From the sequence record MH051918: 50,048 nucleotides of DNA; one strand, given 5' to 3'. Position numbers and translations under genes: made by a program. The notes under the pieces are model-generated. The model saw only the letters and a program-made list of their open reading frames with translations, searched no databases and was not told the DNA's origin. Origin of the DNA: Escherichia phage vB_EcoS_IME347. How positions within the stretch are numbered: position 1 is the first letter of the stretch; each line of letters begins with the position of its first letter. This document shows, in pieces, positions 19 through 50,048 of the stretch.

Positions 19-36
19 TTTAGCAAAAAGTGCTAT
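19..36 (-). promoter_or_regulatory. box copy without a canonical -10 partner inside the window
   Basis: The plus strand reads TTTAGCAAAAAGTGCTAT, identical to copy 49862-49879. The expected -10 position would fall left of base 1. Confidence 0.4.
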
Positions 37-4167: not shown

Positions 4168-4355
4168 TGGAGCGTTTAAGCTACTGGCAGATACTGGATA
4201 AGGCCGGGCGACTGCGCGAGCAGCTTCGCGGGCTACCGGATAATGACCGAATGGAAATAATCGGTCGGGCGTTGCTGGATCTGGTTCACGGCGACGTGAC
4301 CTATCACTCATGCGGCAACGCACAATGGAACCTGACCTTTGAGGTGAAGAAATGA
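4167..4355 (+). CDS. hypothetical small protein, 62 aa
   Basis: Track ORF 4161.. trimmed to ATG 4167 (TAATG overlap with the upstream stop). Confidence 0.7.
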   Translation: MERLSYWQILDKAGRLREQLRGLPDNDRMEIIGRALLDLVHGDVTYHSCGNAQWNLTFEVKK

Positions 4356-4654
4356 ACAACTTGCACGAACTGAAGATTTTCCCGCGCCACTTCTACGGCG
4401 TGAAGATGGGGCAGAAGAAAGCAGAATTCAGGGTTGACGATCGCGGATTCAAAACTGGCGACACGCTCCGCCTTCGCGAATGGCACGAGGGCGACTTTAC
4501 CGGGCGGGAAATCAGCGTTGTGGTGACTGACGTAACCGACGTGACCGAGTTCATCAATCGGGCGAACGCCGAACTGTACAACGGGAACCGCTTCGTAATG
4601 CTGTCGTTCTTCGTGGTTCACGCGAGCCTTTGCGATATCCCGTACATCCGATAG
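4352..4654 (+). CDS. ASCH/DUF3850-like protein, 100 aa
   Basis: HELKIFPRHFYGVKMGQKKAEFRVDDRGFKTGDTLRLREW matches my memory of the DUF3850/ASCH N-terminal pattern. ATGA overlap. Its stop is the TAG of box 4651-4668. Confidence 0.65.
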   Translation: MNNLHELKIFPRHFYGVKMGQKKAEFRVDDRGFKTGDTLRLREWHEGDFTGREISVVVTDVTDVTEFINRANAELYNGNRFVMLSFFVVHASLCDIPYIR

Positions 4655-4694
4655 CACGAATTGCTAAAACAATAATCCGGGGCTATGCCATAAT
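4651..4694 (+). promoter_or_regulatory. box/-10 promoter cassette
   Basis: Box ATAGCACGAATTGCTAAA. Inverted repeat GGGGCTAT/ATAGCCCC. 22 nt spacing to TGcCATAAT (hexamer 4689-4694). Confidence 0.65.
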
Positions 4695-4725
4695 AGCCCC
4701 ACACCAAACGAAAGAGGAAGTAGAT

Positions 4726-7645: not shown

Positions 7646-7685
7646 CACGAATTGCTAAAAGTTCCGCAAGGGCATTTGATAGAAT
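7642..7685 (+). promoter_or_regulatory. box/-10 promoter cassette
   Basis: Box ATAGCACGAATTGCTAAA. Inverted repeat GGGCA/TGCCC. 22 nt spacing to TGaTAGAAT (hexamer 7680-7685). Confidence 0.65.
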
Positions 7686-7718
7686 GCCCTTATTGAAACG
7701 AAGCAAAGGAAAATAGAA

Positions 7719-9561: not shown

Positions 9562-9580
9562 ACGTCTGGAGTATGATAAA

Positions 9581-9598
9581 ATAGCACGAAATGTTAAA
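9581..9598 (+). promoter_or_regulatory. box copy in the terS leader
   Basis: ATAGCACGAAATGTTAAA lies between TGaTAAAAT (9574-9582) and the GGAGGA RBS. No -10 lies 22 nt downstream. Confidence 0.45.
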
Positions 9599-14987: not shown

Positions 14988-15464
14988 ATGGCAATTGCAG
15001 CAAGCTATCAGAAAGATATGTCTATCGCCGTTCCGGGTATGGTGGCAGACACCTCCCGTTACAACATCGACGGCGCTTGCGTACTGAGCGGTGACGTTGA
15101 TATCCTCGTCGGCGTTGCGGTTCAGGTTGACAACGTTCAGGCCGTTGACGGTCACAAAGTCATGAAGCCTATGGCATCCGGCGGCAAGGCTTATGGTGTG
15201 GCGATTCGCTCCCACTTCCAGACTAAAGGCAAAGATGGTCAGATGTACTATGAAGCGGGCGGCGGCATTAACGTAATGACCTCCGGGCGCGTTTGGGTTA
15301 TCTCCAAAGATTCCACCGCTCCGGCGTTTGGTGAAACTGTCAACTTTGACGTTGACGGACAGCAGAAAGCAGACGGCGCGATCGAAACCGCATGGACTTA
15401 TGCGGGCGGCTTCACTACCTATCAGGATTTGAAGCTGGTTGAAATCCAATTGCATCAACTGTAA
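14988..15464 (+). CDS. head decoration/cement-like protein, paralog A, 158 aa
   Basis: Track ORF with an AAGGAG RBS. Shares YNIDGACV, GVAVQV, GRVWV, (A/S)PAFGE and AGGF with the next gene. Lies between the scaffold and capsid genes. Confidence 0.6.
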   Translation: MAIAASYQKDMSIAVPGMVADTSRYNIDGACVLSGDVDILVGVAVQVDNVQAVDGHKVMKPMASGGKAYGVAIRSHFQTKGKDGQMYYEAGGGINVMTSGRVWVISKDSTAPAFGETVNFDVDGQQKADGAIETAWTYAGGFTTYQDLKLVEIQLHQL

Positions 15465-15522: not shown

Positions 15523-16017
15523 ATGTCTGATTATGGTAATTTGTCTTTGGGGGTTAGCTGTCCCGGCCTCCTGTCCGATACGTCGGACTATAATATCGAC
15601 GGCGCTTGTGTGGCTCGTGGGGAAATTCCTTTTGGTGTCGCTGTTCAGGTTGTCGAGATCGTGGATGGTGTCAAGGTTGTCTCCGCGCTGAGTGACGGCA
15701 AGCCGTATGGTGTGTCGATGCGATCGCAATACGAAAACTTGTCGGGCGTGGTTCAGGACGGCGAACCTGTGAGCGTTATCTCTCATGGTCGAGTTTGGGT
15801 TCGCACCTCTCTGGAGGATTCGCCCGCTTTCGGTGAGAAGTTATCCTTCGAATCTGGCGGAGAAGTATCTGAGGCCGGGGAGGCTGGCTGGCCTTTCGCT
15901 GGAGGTTTCGTTAAGTTTGGTGAGGGCTGGATTGTAGAGGTTCAGGTTTTGCAAAACCGATACTACATCCCACCTGAGCCGGAACCTGAACCAGAACAAG
16001 ACCCGGAAGAGCCGTAG
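15523..16017 (+). CDS. head decoration/cement-like protein, paralog B with acidic PE-rich tail, 164 aa
   Basis: Track ORF, paralog of 14988-15464. Its C-terminus PPEPEPEPEQDPEEP ends at TAG 16015-16017, and the same composition continues in frame to 16080. Confidence 0.65.
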   Translation: MSDYGNLSLGVSCPGLLSDTSDYNIDGACVARGEIPFGVAVQVVEIVDGVKVVSALSDGKPYGVSMRSQYENLSGVVQDGEPVSVISHGRVWVRTSLEDSPAFGEKLSFESGGEVSEAGEAGWPFAGGFVKFGEGWIVEVQVLQNRYYIPPEPEPEPEQDPEEP

Positions 16018-16080
16018 CCGGAAGATCCTGAACCGGAAGAGGGAGGCGAAACTGACCCGGAAGAAGGTTCAGAGGGTTAA
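16018..16080 (+). other. in-frame post-TAG extension (20 codons, PEDPEPEEGGETDPEEGSEG, then TAA)
   Basis: Direct translation in the frame of 15523-16017. CCGGAAGA units recur on both sides of the TAG. Confidence 0.6.
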
Positions 16081-16092
16081 CACAAAAACAGT

Positions 16093-16120
16093 TTGACGCT
16101 TTAACAAAAAGTGCTATCAT
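16093..16120 (+). promoter_or_regulatory. sigma70-like promoter TTGACG-16-TGcTATCAT (capsid gene)
   Basis: TTGACG at 16093-16098 and TATCAT at 16115-16120. The predicted +1 (~16127) lies inside the 5' arm of terminator 16121-16148. Confidence 0.55.
16100..16117 (-). promoter_or_regulatory. inverted box copy forming the spacer and TGn of the capsid promoter
   Basis: The plus strand reads TTTAACAAAAAGTGCTAT, embedded in TTGACG-16-TATCAT. Confidence 0.5.
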
Positions 16121-16148
16121 AAAGCCGTTATCACTTAACGGCTTTTTT
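16121..16148 (+). terminator. intrinsic terminator immediately upstream of the capsid gene
   Basis: AGCCGTTA-tcact-TAACGGCT followed by T6. Confidence 0.75.
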
Positions 16149-16167
16149 CACAAAAGAGGATGTAAAC

Positions 16168-19843: not shown

Positions 19844-19867
19844 GGGGGCGCTTGCGCTCCCTTTTTT
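19844..19867 (+). terminator. intrinsic terminator after the tail tube gene
   Basis: GGGGGCG-cttg-CGCTCCC (one G.U pair) followed by T6. Confidence 0.8.
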
Positions 19868-19871
19868 GTTT

Positions 19872-19880
19872 CTGTAGAAT
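19872..19880 (+). promoter_or_regulatory. CTGTAGAAT -10-like nonamer after a terminator
   Basis: Lies 5 nt after the T-run of terminator 19844-19867. The motif recurs at 23924, 26057, 41647 and 37379 (minus strand). Confidence 0.4.
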
Positions 19881-19907
19881 CACTGTATCAAATCAATACG
19901 GCGCTGT

Positions 19908-19925
19908 TTTAACAAAAAGTGCTAT
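19908..19925 (-). promoter_or_regulatory. inverted box copy upstream of the tail chaperone gene
   Basis: The plus strand reads TTTAACAAAAAGTGCTAT followed by CAC, giving TGcTATCAC. Lies 24 nt before ATG 19949. Confidence 0.45.
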
Positions 19926-19948
19926 CACACCAATCAGGAGAAATGACA

Positions 19949-20263
19949 ATGGCTAAATTCAAGTTCACTCTGGGCGCACTGCCTGACTTCAAACTTCCAG
20001 TATCGTTCAACATGCCGAACGGCGAAGAAGGTCGAATCGTGTTTACCGTTAAGCACAAGACCGCCGCAGAGATTCAGGAGTTATTCCAGAAAGGTGCGGG
20101 CGATAAAGATTTCGTGATGGAATTGGCTGTGGGTTGGGATATCGCGGACGACGAGTTTAACGAAGAGAACGTAGAGCGACTGATCAACTATTACCCCGGC
20201 TCAATGCTCGCACTGACTCAGGCATACATGAAGGCTCTTGCAGGTCAGCGCGTAAAAAACTAA
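19949..20263 (+). CDS. tail assembly chaperone G-like, 104 aa
   Basis: Track ORF 19919.. trimmed to ATG 19949 (AGGAG 8 nt upstream). Ends just after the slippery A_AAA_AAC. Confidence 0.8.
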   Translation: MAKFKFTLGALPDFKLPVSFNMPNGEEGRIVFTVKHKTAAEIQELFQKGAGDKDFVMELAVGWDIADDEFNEENVERLINYYPGSMLALTQAYMKALAGQRVKN

Positions 20264-26028: not shown

Positions 26029-26053
26029 GACCCGCCTTGCGCGGGTTTTTTTT
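26029..26053 (+). terminator. intrinsic terminator after the I-like gene
   Basis: CCCGC-cttgc-GCGGG followed by T8. Confidence 0.8.
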
Positions 26054-26056
26054 CGC

Positions 26057-26065
26057 CTGTATAAT
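26057..26065 (+). promoter_or_regulatory. CTGTATAAT -10-like nonamer after a terminator
   Basis: Lies 4 nt after the T-run of terminator 26029-26053, upstream of the J-like gene. Confidence 0.4.
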
Positions 26066-26079
26066 GGCATCACCGATAA

Positions 26080-26097
26080 ATAGCACAAAAGGTTAAA
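26080..26097 (+). promoter_or_regulatory. box copy in the J-like gene leader
   Basis: ATAGCACAAAAGGTTAAA lies 14 nt after CTGTATAAT (26057-26065) and 4 nt before ATG 26102. Confidence 0.45.
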
Positions 26098-31156: not shown

Positions 31157-31344
31157 AGTTACAGATTTTGCGGTGTAACATCTGTCTACTTTTGTAACCA
31201 AAATGAGGCGTGACAAAATTCGCTCATTTTTTAATCAGCATGACGCACCTTAAGATATAGAAAACTCCTTATAATATATATAGATAGATATAAATTGTTA
31301 TTTTACCTTTTATATATAAATTAGAGGTGTAACCGTTGTATATA

Positions 31345-31368
31345 TTGTCACGGTGTATTTTGTGATGC
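31345..31368. repeat. 24-nt box ATTGTCACGG-N3-ATTTTGTGAYG, copy 1
   Basis: Inverted half-sites GTCAC-N10-GTGAT (31347-31366). Confidence 0.55.
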
Positions 31369-31497
31369 GCTCAATTTTCTACATCATAATCATGTGAATT
31401 CTGTATTGCGGTATTTTTCTATAAACACAGTTACATTGTATACAGTGGTTACGCCGCAATAAAACACGCCTCAAACGCTTGATATTTATGGACTCGC

Positions 31498-31522
31498 ATT
31501 GTCACGGGTAATTTTGTGACGC
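31498..31522. repeat. 24-nt box, copy 2 (perfect GTCAC-N10-GTGAC)
   Basis: GTCAC at 31501-31505 and GTGAC at 31516-31520. About 30 nt upstream of the -35 of promoter 31552-31579. Confidence 0.55.
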
Positions 31523-31551
31523 CCGAATACACTCATTGACATCGTTACAGG

Positions 31552-31579
31552 TTGACTAAATGCCGGGAATGGTTATACT
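31552..31579 (+). promoter_or_regulatory. sigma70-like promoter TTGACT-16-TATACT (exo-erf-ssb)
   Basis: TTGACT at 31552-31557 and TATACT at 31574-31579. About 30 nt before ATG 31610. Confidence 0.6.
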
Positions 31580-31609
31580 GTCCACATCATCAACGAAGGA
31601 GATAAACGA

Positions 31610-32686
31610 ATGTTCAAGGTATTCACGAATGACCAGCTTTCTAACGACGCATATCACGATCCTGAAGGTTGGGCGGCGGAGTACGTAAGCGGCTCAAGCC
31701 TCGCAGAAATCTTCAATACCTGCCCTGCGAACTGGCGGTTCAAGAAGAACGAGATCACAAAGGCTCTTGAGTTCGGTACTCAGTCACATACGAACTTCGA
31801 AAGCAAGGCTCTGTTTGAGGCGTCATATAAGCGCTGCCCTCACCCGAAAGAGTTTAAGGATCTGATTACGTCACAGTCGGCTCTCGCTGCGAAATTAAAA
31901 TCATTCGGCCTGAAAGGTACGAGCGGCAAGCAATATCCCGATCTGATTCGCATGATGGTTGATTGCGGTGAAATGCTCAACGTGCAATGGCTAATTGAAA
32001 TGATCGCGGAAGCGGAAGCGCGAGCGGAAGGAAAGAAACTTGTGGACGCCGAAGCATACGACGCTTGCGTAACAATGCGCCAAGTTCTGGAGAACATCCC
32101 CGAGCACAACGCTTGCATTAACAGCCCAACGGCGATGCATGAGGTTTCAATCTTCGGGGTGATTTCAGGAGTCAAAGTCAAGGTTCGCTTAGACCATCTG
32201 GATTTCGCGGAGAACGTTCAGGCGCGTGTCCTGACTGGTTTCAACAACGAAGGCGAACCAGAATACGAAGATGTGATTTACCCTGAAGCTCTCGTGATTA
32301 CCGATTTCAAGACAACCCAAAGCGCTAACCCGATGGAGTTCCCGAGGCTCGCGTTCAACCACGGCTACTACCTGAAAATGTCACTACAACATGACCTGCT
32401 CAAGCGAGCGATTCAGGCCGGAGCGTTCGAAGGGGTGAGCAAGGACATTCCTATTATCGTTCGCCTACTCGCTCAGGAGAAGAAAGAGCCTTATCTGCCT
32501 CTTGCGTACCGCATGACGATGGAGCAGATCAGGATCGGGCGTCAACAATATATCAGCGTTGTCCACACGTTTAAAGAGTGCTTGGAGTCAGACGTTTGGC
32601 CTTCATACGCTAACGGAGCGGCAGAGGTTGAACTGGAAACTCCGAAGTTCGTTCGCTACCAGTATGATTCACGTTGCAGCATGTAA
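31610..32686 (+). CDS. PD-(D/E)XK recombination exonuclease (RecE/Cas4-like), 358 aa
   Basis: The D...(D/E)xK pattern appears in VRLDHLD...VITDFKTTQS. Sits upstream of erf and ssb. Confidence 0.7.
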   Translation: MFKVFTNDQLSNDAYHDPEGWAAEYVSGSSLAEIFNTCPANWRFKKNEITKALEFGTQSHTNFESKALFEASYKRCPHPKEFKDLITSQSALAAKLKSFGLKGTSGKQYPDLIRMMVDCGEMLNVQWLIEMIAEAEARAEGKKLVDAEAYDACVTMRQVLENIPEHNACINSPTAMHEVSIFGVISGVKVKVRLDHLDFAENVQARVLTGFNNEGEPEYEDVIYPEALVITDFKTTQSANPMEFPRLAFNHGYYLKMSLQHDLLKRAIQAGAFEGVSKDIPIIVRLLAQEKKEPYLPLAYRMTMEQIRIGRQQYISVVHTFKECLESDVWPSYANGAAEVELETPKFVRYQYDSRCSM

Positions 32687-32729
32687 ACAGCACAAATAGC
32701 TAAACATGTAATTCTCGGGGTGTTATAAT
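32687..32729 (+). promoter_or_regulatory. box/-10 promoter cassette
   Basis: Box ACAGCACAAATAGCTAAA. Inverted repeat GGGGTG/CACCCC with TGtTATAAT in the loop. 21 nt spacing. Sits upstream of erf. Confidence 0.6.
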
Positions 32730-35798: not shown

Positions 35799-35816
35799 AT
35801 AGCACTAATTGCTAAG
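35799..35816 (+). promoter_or_regulatory. box copy between two leftward genes, abutting the tail fibre RBS
   Basis: ATAGCACTAATTGCTAAG on the plus strand. Read leftward, it is CTTAGCAATTAGTGCTAT followed by TTACTTGGAGG and the ATG. Confidence 0.4.
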
Positions 35817-35879
35817 CACCGATTTTATCATTGTGGTATGCGCCCGGCAATAGGGCAATAAAAAACCCGCCGAAGCGGG

Positions 35880-36824
35880 TTAGATTAAATCCGATGCCTG
35901 ATAAAGCTTGCGTTCCATTCCTGACCGGAAACCTCCCGGATTCGGGATTATCACCTTCAACTCCCGATCGTCCGCCATATACAGAGCTTCCTTATCATCC
36001 GGCGAACATGCAACGCGCAACTCCCTTCCTCCTCTGTACCTGTATGCAACCATTTCCAGATTGGCAGGGGTGAAGCACGTCCACACCTCCTGCCCCGTCG
36101 CAAGGTGTACTCGCTGCGAGTCAATCCAATCAACGCAAAGGTAAATCGCCTTCTCAGTAGAACCTGTCACGGCAACCGATCCGGCAGTGTGCTTCCTTGC
36201 ATAGAACGACTGCTCCCCCTCCTCATTAATGAATAGGATATTGCAAAACTCGTCGTCCAATTCATCTTCATGAACAAGGTGGCATGGAATGGCATGAATT
36301 ACCGATTCTCCGCCATTCTCCAGCGACTTCACGCCTACGGAGTACATCTTATCATCTGGTAGGAAGATCCCCTCATACGTGCTCAGTGGCGTCGTAGGGC
36401 GTAGTTCTGTCCTTTCCATTACAGCCGCGCAAGCCTCATGCTCTGCGATCGCAGCATTCACTACGGCAACCGGAGTGCGGCGAGCCTTTTTATTCGCCTT
36501 GACAATATACTCCTGCGGAACTTTACCCAAGAATCTCCCGGCAATATTGATTGCTTCGCTGTAGTCAGACCCGGAGAGTTTCATTAGCCAGCCGATACCC
36601 GTGTCGTTACCGCACGAGTTGCACACCGCGCCGCCGTCGCCCGGCTCATTTAGTTTATCAGTCCAGCGAAATCGATCTTTACCTCCGCAGTTTGGGCAAG
36701 GCTGGTGTTTCTTGTTAAAAACGTCGTTAGGTAGTCCGCAAACACTCTGCAAGATCTCACGCCACAGCCCTTTCATGTACGGAAGAACATCTTCTTTCTG
36801 GTACTGCATAAAGTTCTCGTTCAC
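35880..36824 (-). CDS. DNA primase (zinc-ribbon + Toprim-like), 314 aa
   Basis: HQPCPNCGGKDRFRW...CNSCG is a P4-alpha-type primase zinc ribbon. GTG start after GGAGA. Cassette 36857-36900 upstream. Confidence 0.75.
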   Translation of the reverse strand: MNENFMQYQKEDVLPYMKGLWREILQSVCGLPNDVFNKKHQPCPNCGGKDRFRWTDKLNEPGDGGAVCNSCGNDTGIGWLMKLSGSDYSEAINIAGRFLGKVPQEYIVKANKKARRTPVAVVNAAIAEHEACAAVMERTELRPTTPLSTYEGIFLPDDKMYSVGVKSLENGGESVIHAIPCHLVHEDELDDEFCNILFINEEGEQSFYARKHTAGSVAVTGSTEKAIYLCVDWIDSQRVHLATGQEVWTCFTPANLEMVAYRYRGGRELRVACSPDDKEALYMADDRELKVIIPNPGGFRSGMERKLYQASDLI

Positions 36825-36873: not shown

Positions 36874-36900
36874 CTTTTGTGTTTTAGCTATTTGTGCTCT
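36857..36900 (-). promoter_or_regulatory. box/-10 promoter cassette (primase)
   Basis: Read on the minus strand: AGAGCACAAATAGCTAAA. 22 nt spacing to TAAACT. The hexamer lies in the loop of CGCGTA/TACGCG, which is followed by T6. Confidence 0.55.
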
Positions 36901-37327
36901 CGACTTCATCCTTTCGAACTACGCGCATGAACTTGCGGTTCTTGCATCGTTTTTCAAGGCACTTTCCGTTAGAGTCGAACTTGAGATCGAATCGCAGCCA
37001 GCTTGCGCGATACCCGGTACAACCCTGACGACGATACGCGCGATGCGCCGCCTCCGCTCCCTGCCAAGAAATCATGCCGCGAACTTTCCATTCGTTCACA
37101 TTCTGATTTGTTACCTTCAGGGCTTTCGCCGTGGCGGAGGGGGAGCCGTAGAATTCGATCAGGGCGTCAAGTCTGGCGCGTAGTCCGGCGCGAACCTCAT
37201 CTTTCAGGATGTAGAATCCGCATCGCTTGCGAGGCTTTACATCTTTGCCCCGTCGTGTACCATTGTTCCCGTTCAGGTGACGACGATCGATTTCCCCGGT
37301 TGATTCTGCAATACGCTTGATTGTCAT
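36884..37327 (-). CDS. HTH DNA-binding protein (YdaS/Cro-like) with basic Cys-containing C-terminus, 147 aa
   Basis: SATAKALKVTNQNVNEWKVRGMISWQGAEAAH resembles the YdaS/Cro-type HTH. Its last codons (AGC ACA AAT AGC TAA) form box 36883-36900. Confidence 0.55.
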   Translation of the reverse strand: MTIKRIAESTGEIDRRHLNGNNGTRRGKDVKPRKRCGFYILKDEVRAGLRARLDALIEFYGSPSATAKALKVTNQNVNEWKVRGMISWQGAEAAHRAYRRQGCTGYRASWLRFDLKFDSNGKCLEKRCKNRKFMRVVRKDEVESTNS

Positions 37328-37340
37328 AATAAATTCCTCA

Positions 37341-37383
37341 ATAGCACTTTTTGTTAAAACTAACTAATCGATGCGTGTATTAT
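37341..37383 (+). promoter_or_regulatory. box/-10 promoter cassette (helicase)
   Basis: Box ATAGCACTTTTTGTTAAA. 21 nt spacing to TATTAT (37378-37383). Inverted repeat GCGTG/CGCAC. Confidence 0.55.
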
Positions 37384-37387
37384 ACAG
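37379..37387 (-). promoter_or_regulatory. CTGTATAAT -10-like nonamer (leftward, HTH gene)
   Basis: Reverse complement of ATTATACAG. Overlaps the rightward TATTAT of the helicase cassette. Confidence 0.4.
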
Positions 37388-37420
37388 TCAACGCACGAGT
37401 AACGCAAAGGATTAAGAACA

Positions 37421-39472
37421 GTGAAAATCACCCAAGAGACACGAGAGTATTTCCGCACTCAAAACATTAAAAAACAGATCGCAATGCTCGGGGAGGATTA
37501 CATCCGACGCACTCAGGAGCGCTTCCGGGTTGGCGATATCACCCCTTACGAATATCAGGTTGCGGCATACTTTGAGATCGCGAAGCGACTCGGGAAAGAG
37601 TACGAACATCCATTTTACGTAAAAGCCTCAGTATCTGCGGGCAAGACGATTATCTTCGCGATGGTGGCGAAACAATGTCAGGCGATGGGGCTGAAAATGC
37701 TCGTTCTCGCTCGTCAAGGTGAGATTGTGGATCAGGACAGTGAGGAGATTGACAACTTCGGAGTTCCGAATTCCATCTTCTCCGCATCGCTCGGAATCAA
37801 GTCCTGCCACTTCCCGATCGTGGTTGGCTCCGAAGGTACTGTAGGCAATGGCCTGTTCAATGAGTTATCCGATTTTGTCCCGCACGTAATCGGGATCGAT
37901 GAATGTCACCAAGTCGATTGGGAGGACGTGGCGAAGGCGATCGAAGGCAAAGAGTCCTATGCGCAAATGACCACGGATAAGGGATCTATCGTAATGGACG
38001 GCGATATTCCTCTGATTGGTGATGATGGATTGCCAGTTACCGGAACGAAGCGTTCTCAGTACACCGTAATCATCGTCGAAATGATGCGCCGTTGCCGGGA
38101 GAGATACGGGCATGAGTTGCGCGTGTTTGGCATGACGGGATCGGAGTATCGCGGCGTCGTTCCAATTCTCGTTGAGAACAAAAAGCTCGTTGGCTTCTGG
38201 CGTGAGCAGGTGACGAACATTGACACGAACTACCTGATTGAGTTCGGCTCAGTTGTCCCAACCGTGTTTGGCTCAACCGAGGGGGTTCATTACGATCTCG
38301 ACAAGTTCAAGGCGAGCGCCGAAGATGGTGTGTCGGACTTCTCAGAGAAAGAAATGAAGGCGATGGAGGCCGAAATCGTCAAGGATAAATCCTTGACCGA
38401 GAAGATTATGAAGATGGTTGCGAAGGAGGCGGAGAAGCGCAACGCCGTGCTTATCACCTGCGCCGGGCAGCGCCATTGCAAAGAAGCTGCGGCGGCATTG
38501 CCGCCGGGAAGCACTTACGCGATCATTACGGACAAGACAAGCCCGAAAGCACGACAGAAGATTTTGGACGACGTTCGCGCCGGGAAAATCAAGTACACCT
38601 TTCAGGTAATGGCGTTAACGACGGGCGTAAACGTTCCGAATTGGGACTTCTCCGTTATCCTACGCAAGATCGGCTCGCTGACATTGCTGATTCAGCTTTT
38701 AGGGCGCGGAATGCGACTGCTGAAGAAATGGCAAATTGAGCAGGGAATGGTTAAGACTGACCATCTTGTATGGGACTTCGCCGGAACTATGGACGAGTTG
38801 GGGCAGCTTTATTTCGATCCAATTTTGGAACAAGCTCAATATCAGCGCCGTTTCGAAAACGGGAAAGACCCGAAGAAATGCGAATTATGCGGTCACGAAA
38901 ACAGCTTCTATGCGCGTCGTTGCGTGAACGTTATCAACGGCCAGCGCTGTGAGCACTTCTGGACATATCAGACCTGTGAAGATCAGGTAGACGAGAAAAC
39001 AAACAAGGTTCTCGTTAAGGGCTGCGGGGCGAAAAACGACGTGGTAGCGCGTGTTTGCCGTTGCTGTGACGTATCGCTTGTCGATCCTAACCTGAAGTTA
39101 TCCGGCAAGGCGTACACGAAAAACGATTGGTACGACGTGAAACACTTCGAAGTTAAGTTGACGAAAAACCAAAAGGGGATAATATTCCATTACGTCCTTG
39201 ATAATGGCGAGGGTGAATTTAATGCATACGAAAAATTCTTCCCGGAGTCCGATGCGAAAGTGTGCGGGACGCTGTGGAAAACGAAAGGTGTATTGCCGCA
39301 CGTATTCGATCCGAAGATGCGCAAATACTTCATTGGGATGAAGAAAGCAATCAAGATCCTGCAATACGCACACCACATTAAAGCGCCTGTTAGAGTCACT
39401 CACCGCCGCAACGCGAAGAAAGAGGACTTAATCAGCCGCAAAGATTTCGGAATGGAGGAAATTCCAGAATGA
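37421..39472 (+). CDS. SF2 DNA helicase with C-terminal zinc ribbons, 683 aa
   Basis: Walker A in SVSAGKT and DEAH-like motif II in GIDECH. Motif VI region LLGRGMR. C-terminal CELCG...C..C and CRCC clusters. GTG start. Confidence 0.85.
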   Translation: MKITQETREYFRTQNIKKQIAMLGEDYIRRTQERFRVGDITPYEYQVAAYFEIAKRLGKEYEHPFYVKASVSAGKTIIFAMVAKQCQAMGLKMLVLARQGEIVDQDSEEIDNFGVPNSIFSASLGIKSCHFPIVVGSEGTVGNGLFNELSDFVPHVIGIDECHQVDWEDVAKAIEGKESYAQMTTDKGSIVMDGDIPLIGDDGLPVTGTKRSQYTVIIVEMMRRCRERYGHELRVFGMTGSEYRGVVPILVENKKLVGFWREQVTNIDTNYLIEFGSVVPTVFGSTEGVHYDLDKFKASAEDGVSDFSEKEMKAMEAEIVKDKSLTEKIMKMVAKEAEKRNAVLITCAGQRHCKEAAAALPPGSTYAIITDKTSPKARQKILDDVRAGKIKYTFQVMALTTGVNVPNWDFSVILRKIGSLTLLIQLLGRGMRLLKKWQIEQGMVKTDHLVWDFAGTMDELGQLYFDPILEQAQYQRRFENGKDPKKCELCGHENSFYARRCVNVINGQRCEHFWTYQTCEDQVDEKTNKVLVKGCGAKNDVVARVCRCCDVSLVDPNLKLSGKAYTKNDWYDVKHFEVKLTKNQKGIIFHYVLDNGEGEFNAYEKFFPESDAKVCGTLWKTKGVLPHVFDPKMRKYFIGMKKAIKILQYAHHIKAPVRVTHRRNAKKEDLISRKDFGMEEIPE

Positions 39473-49879: not shown

Positions 49880-49894
49880 TCCTGAAATTGTCGA

Positions 49895-49925
49895 TTATTC
49901 CACCGATTCTGGAATAACTGGAATA
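49895..49925. repeat. inverted repeat TTATTCC-N9-GGAATAA plus direct CTGGAATA x2
   Basis: TTATTCC at 49895-49901 and GGAATAA at 49911-49917. A second GGAATA lies at 49920-49925. Confidence 0.5.
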
Positions 49926-49927
49926 CT

Positions 49928-50012
49928 TGATGATTACTCATGATTGCAAATGACAAGTTGTGATTATTGCGTGATGTGGAATGATTGCTGTGATTGTTGC
50001 TTGTAATGCAAT
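49928..50012 (+). repeat. phased TGAT(T/G) repeats
   Basis: TGATT or TGATG occurs near 49931, 49941, 49961, 49971, 49982 and 49991, mostly in steps of 10-11 nt. Followed by TGTAATGCAATGAATG. Confidence 0.5.
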
Positions 50013-50048
50013 GAATGTGGAGGGGAGATTATTATGATGCGCTCCTCG

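Follow-up and report, generated by a model that had tools for sequence, protein, structure and literature searches.

Forward and inverted copies of an intergenic box in a T1-like phage: promoter architectures and a possible dual-function operator

The question raised by the genome of Escherichia phage vB_EcoS_IME347 (sequence record MH051918; the whole stretch of 50,048 nucleotides (nt) analysed here is referred to as the window) is why several copies of a short intergenic box stand inverted relative to the gene that follows, and what they do in that position. Five such copies had been listed in an initial annotation, and all of them are present, at 19-36 (plus strand; TTTAGCAAAAAGTGCTAT), at 16100-16117 (plus strand) ahead of the gene for the major head protein (capsid), at 19908-19925 (plus strand) ahead of the gene for the tape-measure (tail) chaperone, at 35799-35816 (minus strand; CTTAGCAATTAGTGCTAT, a box of the A class) ahead of the tail fibre gene, and at 37341-37358 (minus strand) between the gene for the helix-turn-helix (HTH) regulator Pir and a helicase gene; the capsid, chaperone and regulator copies all read TTTAACAAAAAGTGCTAT. 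The downstream genes are indeed those that had been named, and the five copies match the degenerate box ATAGCACNNNTTGNTAAA with zero to one mismatches. Sorting the copies into those near position -42 of promoters without a -35 element and those inside or after sigma-70 late promoters turns a vague question into one that specific experiments can address; both arrangements are conserved across subfamilies, and the promoter map of the window is corrected along the way.

A known repeat and its usual promoter setting

Judged by their sequence, the five elements are copies of a known intergenic repeat of 18-21 nt that is common to T1-like phages, aaATAGCACnnnTTGnTAAAA. The 2024 re-annotation of phage TLS described it as a 21-nt direct repeat (DR) with the sub-classes A, T and G, present in 18 intergenic copies that are oriented with transcription and lie about 76 nt ahead of start codons (PMC11447400). 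The authors noted the same repeat in T1, Rtp and Rogue1, suggested that it could represent stoperators, enhancer sites or UP elements, and counted its function among the open questions on T1-like phages (PMC11447400). Table S1 of that work lists a minus-strand copy, DR7 (15044..15024), ahead of the major head gene, on which the text is silent (PMC11447400); DR7 is the orthologue of the capsid copy of the window. In the published literature, nothing was found on the box beyond the TLS paper and the paper on the T1 regulator Pir.

The box is strongly over-represented: with up to three mismatches, the 18-mer occurs 9 times in the window (0.03 expected), and with up to two mismatches, the degenerate box occurs 31 times (0.27 expected). 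The number of copies ranges from 11 to 23 across BrunoManser, T1 and TLS, with 23 in T1 and 20 in TLS. The core of the box is a near-palindrome, TAGCA-N5-TG(C/T)TA, with half-sites 10 base pairs apart.

The gene order of the window is that of phage T1, and its closest relatives are the Sertoctavirus phages SRT8, IME-JL8 and BrunoManser (Drexlerviridae, Tunavirinae), to which about 77-78% of the nucleotides are identical along one half to two thirds of its length; no record in the phage collection covered at least 80% of any of the three queried stretches. Joined end to start, positions 49880-50048 and 1-18 give a single non-coding stretch, colinear with the right end and then the left end of the T1 genome, which indicates that the window contains the genome of this T1-like phage (Drexlerviridae) in full and in circularly permuted form. 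Phages of this type are a frequent culprit in culture losses, both in the laboratory and in fermentation.

The usual setting of the box is a forward cassette. A -10-like hexamer, often preceded by TGn, is located 19-21 nt (mostly 20) downstream of 25 of the 31 boxes, and in 24 of these 25 cases the distance from the box to a start codon is 54-71 nt. The 185 distinct cassettes collected from the window phage and its relatives give the consensus aATAGCACtaaTTGcTAAAAc-N12-at.tG.TAtaaT-N3-c.cA, which combines the box with an extended -10 and a conserved CA at the expected transcription start, without a -35. When the -10 is placed at -12 to -7, the forward box spans -50 to -33 and the centre of its core falls near -42, as in the class II activator-dependent layout (a site near -41.5, with a weak or absent -35). 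Position -42 is the classical site for an activator that touches RNA polymerase.

It is possible that the box is recognised directly by the host polymerase or by a host factor. In one such scheme, host RNA polymerase reads the box as a UP-like or -35-substituting element, and the inverted copies are backward or competing promoters (chaperone, regulator/helicase) or a chance reuse of spacer sequence (capsid). The sequence of the cassettes does not favour this explanation: the invariant ATAGCAC...TTGCTA is not A/T-rich, it does not line up with the UP consensus at -59 to -38 in a comparison by hand, and 22 nt separate TTGCTA from the -10, a distance that is too great for a -35 and on which we rejected both the UP-element and the -35 assignment. 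Nor does it explain why the full box is conserved within the spacer of the capsid promoter, over the start site of the fibre gene and at terS and J, where no -10 is found at 20 nt. The requirement that early promoters work ahead of any phage protein is in its favour, as are the complete backward cassette at the chaperone copy (see below), the UP-element idea raised by the TLS authors (PMC11447400) and the basal activity of box promoters without Pir in T1 reporters; the same reporters, however, respond to phage regulators (PMC6737242). All told, we consider a box read by the host polymerase to be unlikely.

Two further features of the cassettes were observed. A hairpin encloses the -10 of most forward cassettes, for example at 4679-4700 and 7668-7691 (one example reads GGGGCTAT-gccata-ATAGCCCC); at least 5 Watson-Crick pairs are formed in 153 of 203 distinct cassettes, many with 8-13, compared to 62 in shuffled controls, mostly short. 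The non-Watson-Crick pairs in these stems comprise 126 G.T and 13 A.C, and this excess of G.T implies that the hairpin is strand-specific, that is, formed in RNA or in non-template single-stranded DNA. In addition, boxes of the sub-class TAGCTAAA (A(T/C/G)(A/G)GCAC(A/G)AATAGCTAAA), at 32687, 36883, 39882, 42878 and 46621, are located ahead of genes for recombination, of the primase, dam and helicase genes, and of the stretch leading up to the lysis genes, and the GAA/TTGC class prevails in the two early arms; the box classes may mark timing groups.

Copies at the late genes and at the regulator gene

To characterise the inverted copies, we compared the flanks of the capsid, chaperone, fibre and regulator copies in distinct sequence contexts from 23-50 distinct relatives each, drawn from IMG/VR and anchored on the capsid and primase genes; the chaperone protein as a query yielded only 2 loci, and capsid-anchored loci of 21 kb were used instead. 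The initial annotation proposed that the GTGCTAT end of the inverted box and the next bases supply TGn and a -10. Read in this way, the box would itself be a promoter module that drives all four genes, and transcription would start 7 nt past GTGCTATNNN.

At the capsid gene this proposal stands. Together with the box, TTGACG at 16093, which had been taken for the -35, forms a predicted plus-strand promoter at 16093-16120, TTGACG-16-TATCAT with TG, that scored 10 of 12 matches in our scan (-35 at 16093-16098, TG at 16112-16113, -10 at 16115-16120, predicted start near 16127). The box, at about -27 to -10, makes up the 16-nt spacer, and its TGCTAT end contributes TGn as well as the first three bases of the -10. 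TTGnnn is found 1 nt ahead of the box in all 50 distinct relatives, and in 47 of the 50 the TAT of the box and the following 3 nt make TAnnnT, the remaining 3 having TATCAT shifted by 1 nt. The bases that trail the box vary (CAT, TAT, ATT, TCT, GAT), but the -10 pattern persists; the hallmarks of a sigma-70 extended -10 promoter, namely a -35-like hexamer, a 16-nt spacer, TGn and a -10 with A2 and T6, are thus retained despite sequence change in the relatives. By pattern search, the box is found in the same orientation at 57 of 61 capsid loci; of the other 4, two have the box with small sequence differences, one has it but is offset in its locus, and one comes without upstream sequence, such that no locus with readable upstream sequence lacks it. 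The full 18-nt box, beyond its TGCTAT end, is retained in the capsid spacer across subfamilies, and one clade of relatives has a G-class box, TTTAGCAATTCGTGCTAT, in its place. This class switch, together with the conservation of the full box, implies that the box itself, and not just the spacer, is under selection at the capsid promoter. A backward promoter at this copy was considered and dismissed, with TAnnnT on the opposite strand in only 2 of 50 contexts and the conserved TA belonging to the stop codon of the upstream gene.

The capsid start codon lies 50 nt past the end of the box, and the interval contains a hairpin (AAAGCCGTTA/TAACGGCTTT, followed by a U-run; 16121-16150, plus strand) that directly follows the -10 and is terminator-like for upstream transcripts. 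Its onset is 0-2 nt past the capsid -10 in 33 of 36 distinct relatives. The predicted start falls inside the 5' arm, and the fold energy of -12.9 kcal/mol for the whole hairpin drops to -1.6 kcal/mol when counted from 16127. Presumably, the hairpin terminates or stabilises upstream head-gene transcripts, and the transcripts from the capsid promoter would escape it. Upstream of this promoter, the gene for a cement/decoration-like protein (15523-16081) contains an in-frame stop at 16015-16017, within a Pro/Glu-rich tail, that is followed by 21 more in-frame codons up to the TAA at 16079-16081, the conserved stop of the relatives; the orthologues consist of 260 amino acids in BrunoManser, with a longer C-terminal part, and 255 in T1. 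The stop at 16015-16017 could be a recent nonsense change or could be read through.

The chaperone gene has a late promoter of its own upstream of the box. The segment 19844-19880 (plus strand) comprises the terminator of the major tail gene (19844-19861 and a T-run) and the predicted late chaperone/tape-measure promoter, with a -35 TTGCGC (19852-19857), a 17-nt spacer and a -10 TAGAAT (19875-19880). The terminator hairpin supplies this -35 through its loop and its 3' arm, an arrangement conserved across relatives, and the terminator with TTGCGC-17-(TAGAAT, TAAAAT, TACAAT or TAATAT) is present in all 49 distinct relatives, box-less clades included. Where present, the box is part of an insertion of about 35 nt between the late promoter and the Shine-Dalgarno sequence; in the window, it is located at about +22 to +39 of this promoter and ends 23 nt before the start codon. 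On the same strand, TAnnnT tied to the box was found in none of the 26 contexts, whereas on the opposite strand TAnnnT is located exactly 20 nt from the box in all 26, with TGn in 23 of them, the background rate being about 1% at any given offset; the 20-nt spacer itself is variable among relatives. The opposing -10 of the window (TACAGT with TGa; 19882-19887, minus strand) is 1 nt from the plus-strand -10. The chaperone copy is therefore a complete box cassette aimed leftward, against the late promoter. There is no gene in that direction for it to serve, and a small open reading frame behind it was rejected as a candidate: neither a Shine-Dalgarno sequence nor a start codon is found at the usual 54-71 nt, and the reading frames there are only antisense to the major tail gene.

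At the gene for the lateral tail fibre, the predicted promoter (35822-35850, minus strand; TTGCCG, 17-nt spacer, TGaTAAAAT) follows the primase terminator (35864-35881) and is conserved in 23 distinct relatives, reading TTGCAA-17-TGaTAAAAT in the T1 group. The box starts 5 nt past the -10 and, at about -1 to +17, covers the transcription start; the Shine-Dalgarno sequence comes next, and the start codon is 18 nt from the end of the box. TAnnnT tied to this copy occurs on the same strand in 1 of 23 contexts and on the opposite strand in none, and the latter count led us to discard a backward promoter at this site.

The regulator gene (36884-37327, minus strand) is the orthologue of pir and encodes a Cro/CI-like HTH protein with 79% identity to T1 Pir. 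Its predicted promoter (37379-37407, minus strand) consists of TTGCGT (37402-37407), a 17-nt spacer and TATAAT (37379-37384), and the equivalent in the T1 group, read by eye, is TTGAAT-17-TATAAT. The box lies in the leader, at +15 to +32, adjoining the Shine-Dalgarno sequence and ending 13 nt before the start codon. As had been proposed, the divergent helicase promoter shares this copy and has it as its forward box, at about -49 to -32; the -10 of that promoter, TATTAT (37378-37383, plus strand), is 19 nt from the box and overlaps the -10 of the Pir promoter on the other strand. The helicase -10 is tied to the box in 24 of 25 relatives, compared to 1 of 25 for TAnnnT on the strand of the regulator gene. 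At both the chaperone and the regulator sites, a box promoter thus stands face to face with a sigma-70 promoter, and the two could not be occupied together.

Consequently, the reading of the inverted box as a promoter module has to be confined to one of the five copies, the predicted promoter of the capsid gene. The chaperone, fibre and regulator genes are instead predicted to be driven from their own conserved sigma-70 promoters upstream of the box: at these three copies, an extended -10 with T at position 6 was found on the strand of the gene in 0 of 26, 1 of 23 and 1 of 25 contexts, respectively, and copy 19-36 is not part of a -10 either. Moreover, a start 7 nt past the box-derived hexamer would remove the Shine-Dalgarno sequence, because that sequence is within a few nucleotides of the chaperone, fibre and regulator boxes. 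As a general account, a built-in promoter is thus very improbable. The suggestion that the element is used in both orientations with different outputs survives in spirit, but the difference lies in the position of the box relative to the promoter. The copies were also said to abut gene starts, which is true of their proximity but loose as to distance (50 nt for the capsid gene, 23 nt for the chaperone gene, 18 nt for the fibre gene and 13 nt for the regulator gene), and leaves out the forward copies at terS and J.

The forward box at terS (9581-9598, plus strand) follows the -10 TAAAAT (9577-9582) with a 2-nt overlap and ends 4 nt before the Shine-Dalgarno sequence; of 49 distinct contexts, 14 carry this copy, T1 and SRT8 included. 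At the gene for the J-like tail tip protein, a forward variant of the box (26080-26097, plus strand) contains the Shine-Dalgarno sequence and lies 14 nt past TTGCGC-17-TATAAT (26037-26065), leaving 4 nt to the start codon; it is present in 32 of 38 distinct relatives. All five late units (terS, capsid, chaperone, J and fibre) accordingly share the layout of a terminator, then a sigma-70 promoter, then a box, and the orientation of the box is, in this order, forward, inverted, inverted, forward and inverted. Given the forward copies at terS and J, proximity to the start of a late gene is not specific to the inverted orientation. Like that of the chaperone promoter, the -35 of the J promoter (TTGCGC, 26037-26042) is contributed by the terminator ahead of it, by way of the loop and the 3' arm, and this too is conserved across relatives.

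The presence of the box in the predicted leader at chaperone, fibre, regulator, terS and J, 4-12 nt from the Shine-Dalgarno sequence or overlapping it, would be compatible with copies near start codons acting at the level of the mRNA, where an operator in the 5' leader would control translation or stability. However, terS and J have the box in the forward orientation and the other three genes have it inverted, and therefore the RNAs are complementary rather than the same sequence. An RNA hairpin formed by the box itself was rejected, given the fold energies of 0 kcal/mol for the inverted and -1.3 kcal/mol for the forward orientation; furthermore, the capsid copy is upstream of its predicted start, and about 24 other copies are upstream of their -10. 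We regard an operator in the mRNA as the least probable of the explanations weighed here.

The fifth inverted copy, 19-36, ends 15 nt upstream of the -35 of an early promoter, TTGACT-17-TACAAT (52-80), which places it at about -68 to -51, and the same 15-nt distance between box and -35 is found in T1; no -10 is located 20 nt from this copy in either direction. The region that follows is one of two paralogous control regions (60-450 and 31160-31610), each about 400 nt long and identical to the other in 74% of the alignment columns. Both contain an AT-rich core and repeats of the GTGACA/TGTAAC type, and they have ACATTGTATACAGTG in common, at 321 and 31433. One of these regions is ahead of the first rightward early gene and the other is ahead of recE, the promoter of which is repressed by Pir and CRP in T1.

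A candidate operator and its regulator

Taken as a whole, the observations lead us to a guarded preference for a dual-function operator that activates or blocks transcription depending on its position. Under this model, the box would be the operator for a single protein encoded by the phage, for which Pir is the leading candidate. The bound protein would recruit polymerase from -42 at promoters without a -35, and would hinder polymerase when bound in the spacer, at the start site or in the leader, such that the promoters of the late operons and of pir would be negatively coupled to the early/middle programme. The architecture of the copies and its conservation are observed in the compared loci; that a protein binds the box, which protein this is, and the sign of regulation, we infer. 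The mixed orientation of the box at late genes, its near-palindromic core and the lack of structure in the box RNA all fit a site for a protein that binds double-stranded DNA.

The assignment to Pir draws on the reporter analysis of T1, in which Pir activates Pdam and represses its own promoter, and Orf65 activates its own promoter and represses Ppir (PMC6737242). In the T1 genome, we found a forward box at Pdam (38953-38970) and at Porf65 (4344-4361) and a leader box at Ppir (36444-36461). Homologues of Pir were identified in 823 phage records, every one of which belongs to an enterobacterial phage of about 44-52 kb that bears an organism name usual for Drexlerviridae, the family known to carry the box; a comparison with solved structures returned no significant match to Pir. 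Orf65, which is not a paralogue of Pir and was found in only 65 records, was rejected as a universal binder of the box.

Several observations weigh against a Pir-bound operator of this kind. The T1 promoters Phol and PrecE are regulated by Pir but have no good box, and Porf65, which carries a box of the G class, is unaffected by Pir (PMC6737242). The putative recognition helix of Pir is not invariant, though the box is, which weakens the assignment to Pir without excluding it, and the two reporter results for Orf65 are consistent with binding by that protein, its narrow distribution notwithstanding. Copy 19-36 is placed neither at -42 nor where an operator would be expected, and the chaperone copy appears to be dispensable because several clades have the same late promoter without it. 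Furthermore, with a phage-encoded factor, some 24 early and middle promoters would need a protein that must first be made, and the model leaves the release of late-promoter repression unexplained.

A bolder form of the model can be offered only tentatively, and we doubt it more than we believe it. Here, one family-wide regulator and a single type of box would run the whole T1-type programme by position, with about 24 promoters switched on from -42, the five late operons and the regulator's own gene held from within the spacer, the start site or the leader, face-to-face promoters with one box in common at two sites, and the backward chaperone cassette serving as a conserved antisense or occluding promoter without a gene of its own.

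Comparison with known systems

The box bears a superficial resemblance to a sigma-54 promoter, with TAGCACG..TTGC against TGGCACG-N4-TTGC, but by our own reading the spacing is 2 nt short, AG replaces GG and the box is located at -50 to -33, and this assignment was rejected. The capsid copy also recalls the lambda Q element at PR', in that a -35 and a -10 of a late promoter flank it and a terminator follows closely. Q systems require a pause signal resembling a -10 at the very beginning of the transcript. At the capsid promoter, in contrast, the -10 is followed by AAAGCC, which belongs to the 5' arm of the hairpin, and the hairpin is at about the start rather than well downstream; a Q-like promoter was therefore rejected, and no Q-like gene was noticed, although no dedicated search was made.

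The stoperators of mycobacteriophage L5 are likewise numerous, short, asymmetric intergenic sites in one phage genome, some of them downstream of promoters. They block elongation in one orientation and belong to the repressor of a temperate phage. If the boxes were roadblocks of this type, a bound repressor would stop elongating polymerase and there would be no activation, which we consider quite improbable. The fixed 20-nt spacing to an extended -10 without a -35 and the conserved CA at the expected start point to a promoter function at most copies, and the late-gene copies occur in both orientations relative to transcription, unlike the L5 sites with their fixed orientation. In T1 reporters, two box promoters are activated rather than repressed (PMC6737242). 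In favour of stoperators are the multitude of intergenic copies, the suggestion made by the TLS authors (PMC11447400), the reported persistence of T1 as a pseudo-prophage and the repression of Ppir by T1 regulators.

A parallel for the forward cassettes is provided by the middle promoters of T4, which depend on MotA and AsiA: there, too, a phage-specific box replaces the -35, the -10 is good and often extended, and there are many early/middle copies. The MotA box is centred near -30, whereas the box of the window is centred near -42. Among the eight window proteins scanned, none had a Pfam hit to the MotA or AsiA families, the rest of the genome not having been screened.

For the combination of the two arrangements, precedents are lambda cI at OR/PRM, CRP and FNR at class II promoters, and p4 of phi29, where a protein bound near -42 activates a weak promoter, binding over the core or the start of another promoter represses, and pairs of divergent or face-to-face promoters share one site. 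The box differs in that it is found on about 30 promoters of a virulent phage rather than in one switch region, and its binder and the sign of its effect on late promoters are deduced from the layout.

Finally, the nearest known element is the DR of TLS itself, with which the box shares its sequence, the T, G and A sub-classes and the presence of many intergenic copies ahead of genes. The five copies discussed here differ from the published description in being inverted and, at the four gene starts, in lying 13-50 nt from the start codon rather than about 76 nt ahead of it and with transcription; direction and distance are descriptive rather than defining traits of the DR, considering that Table S1 of the TLS paper lists the minus-strand capsid copy itself. 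That paper makes no mention of the 20-nt coupling to an extended -10, which is a feature found here, nor of inverted copies as a class or of their embedding in late promoters. Thus, the box is already known and does not represent a new kind of system; what is new is that its copies are set in conserved, distinct architectures, including a backward cassette opposed to a late promoter.

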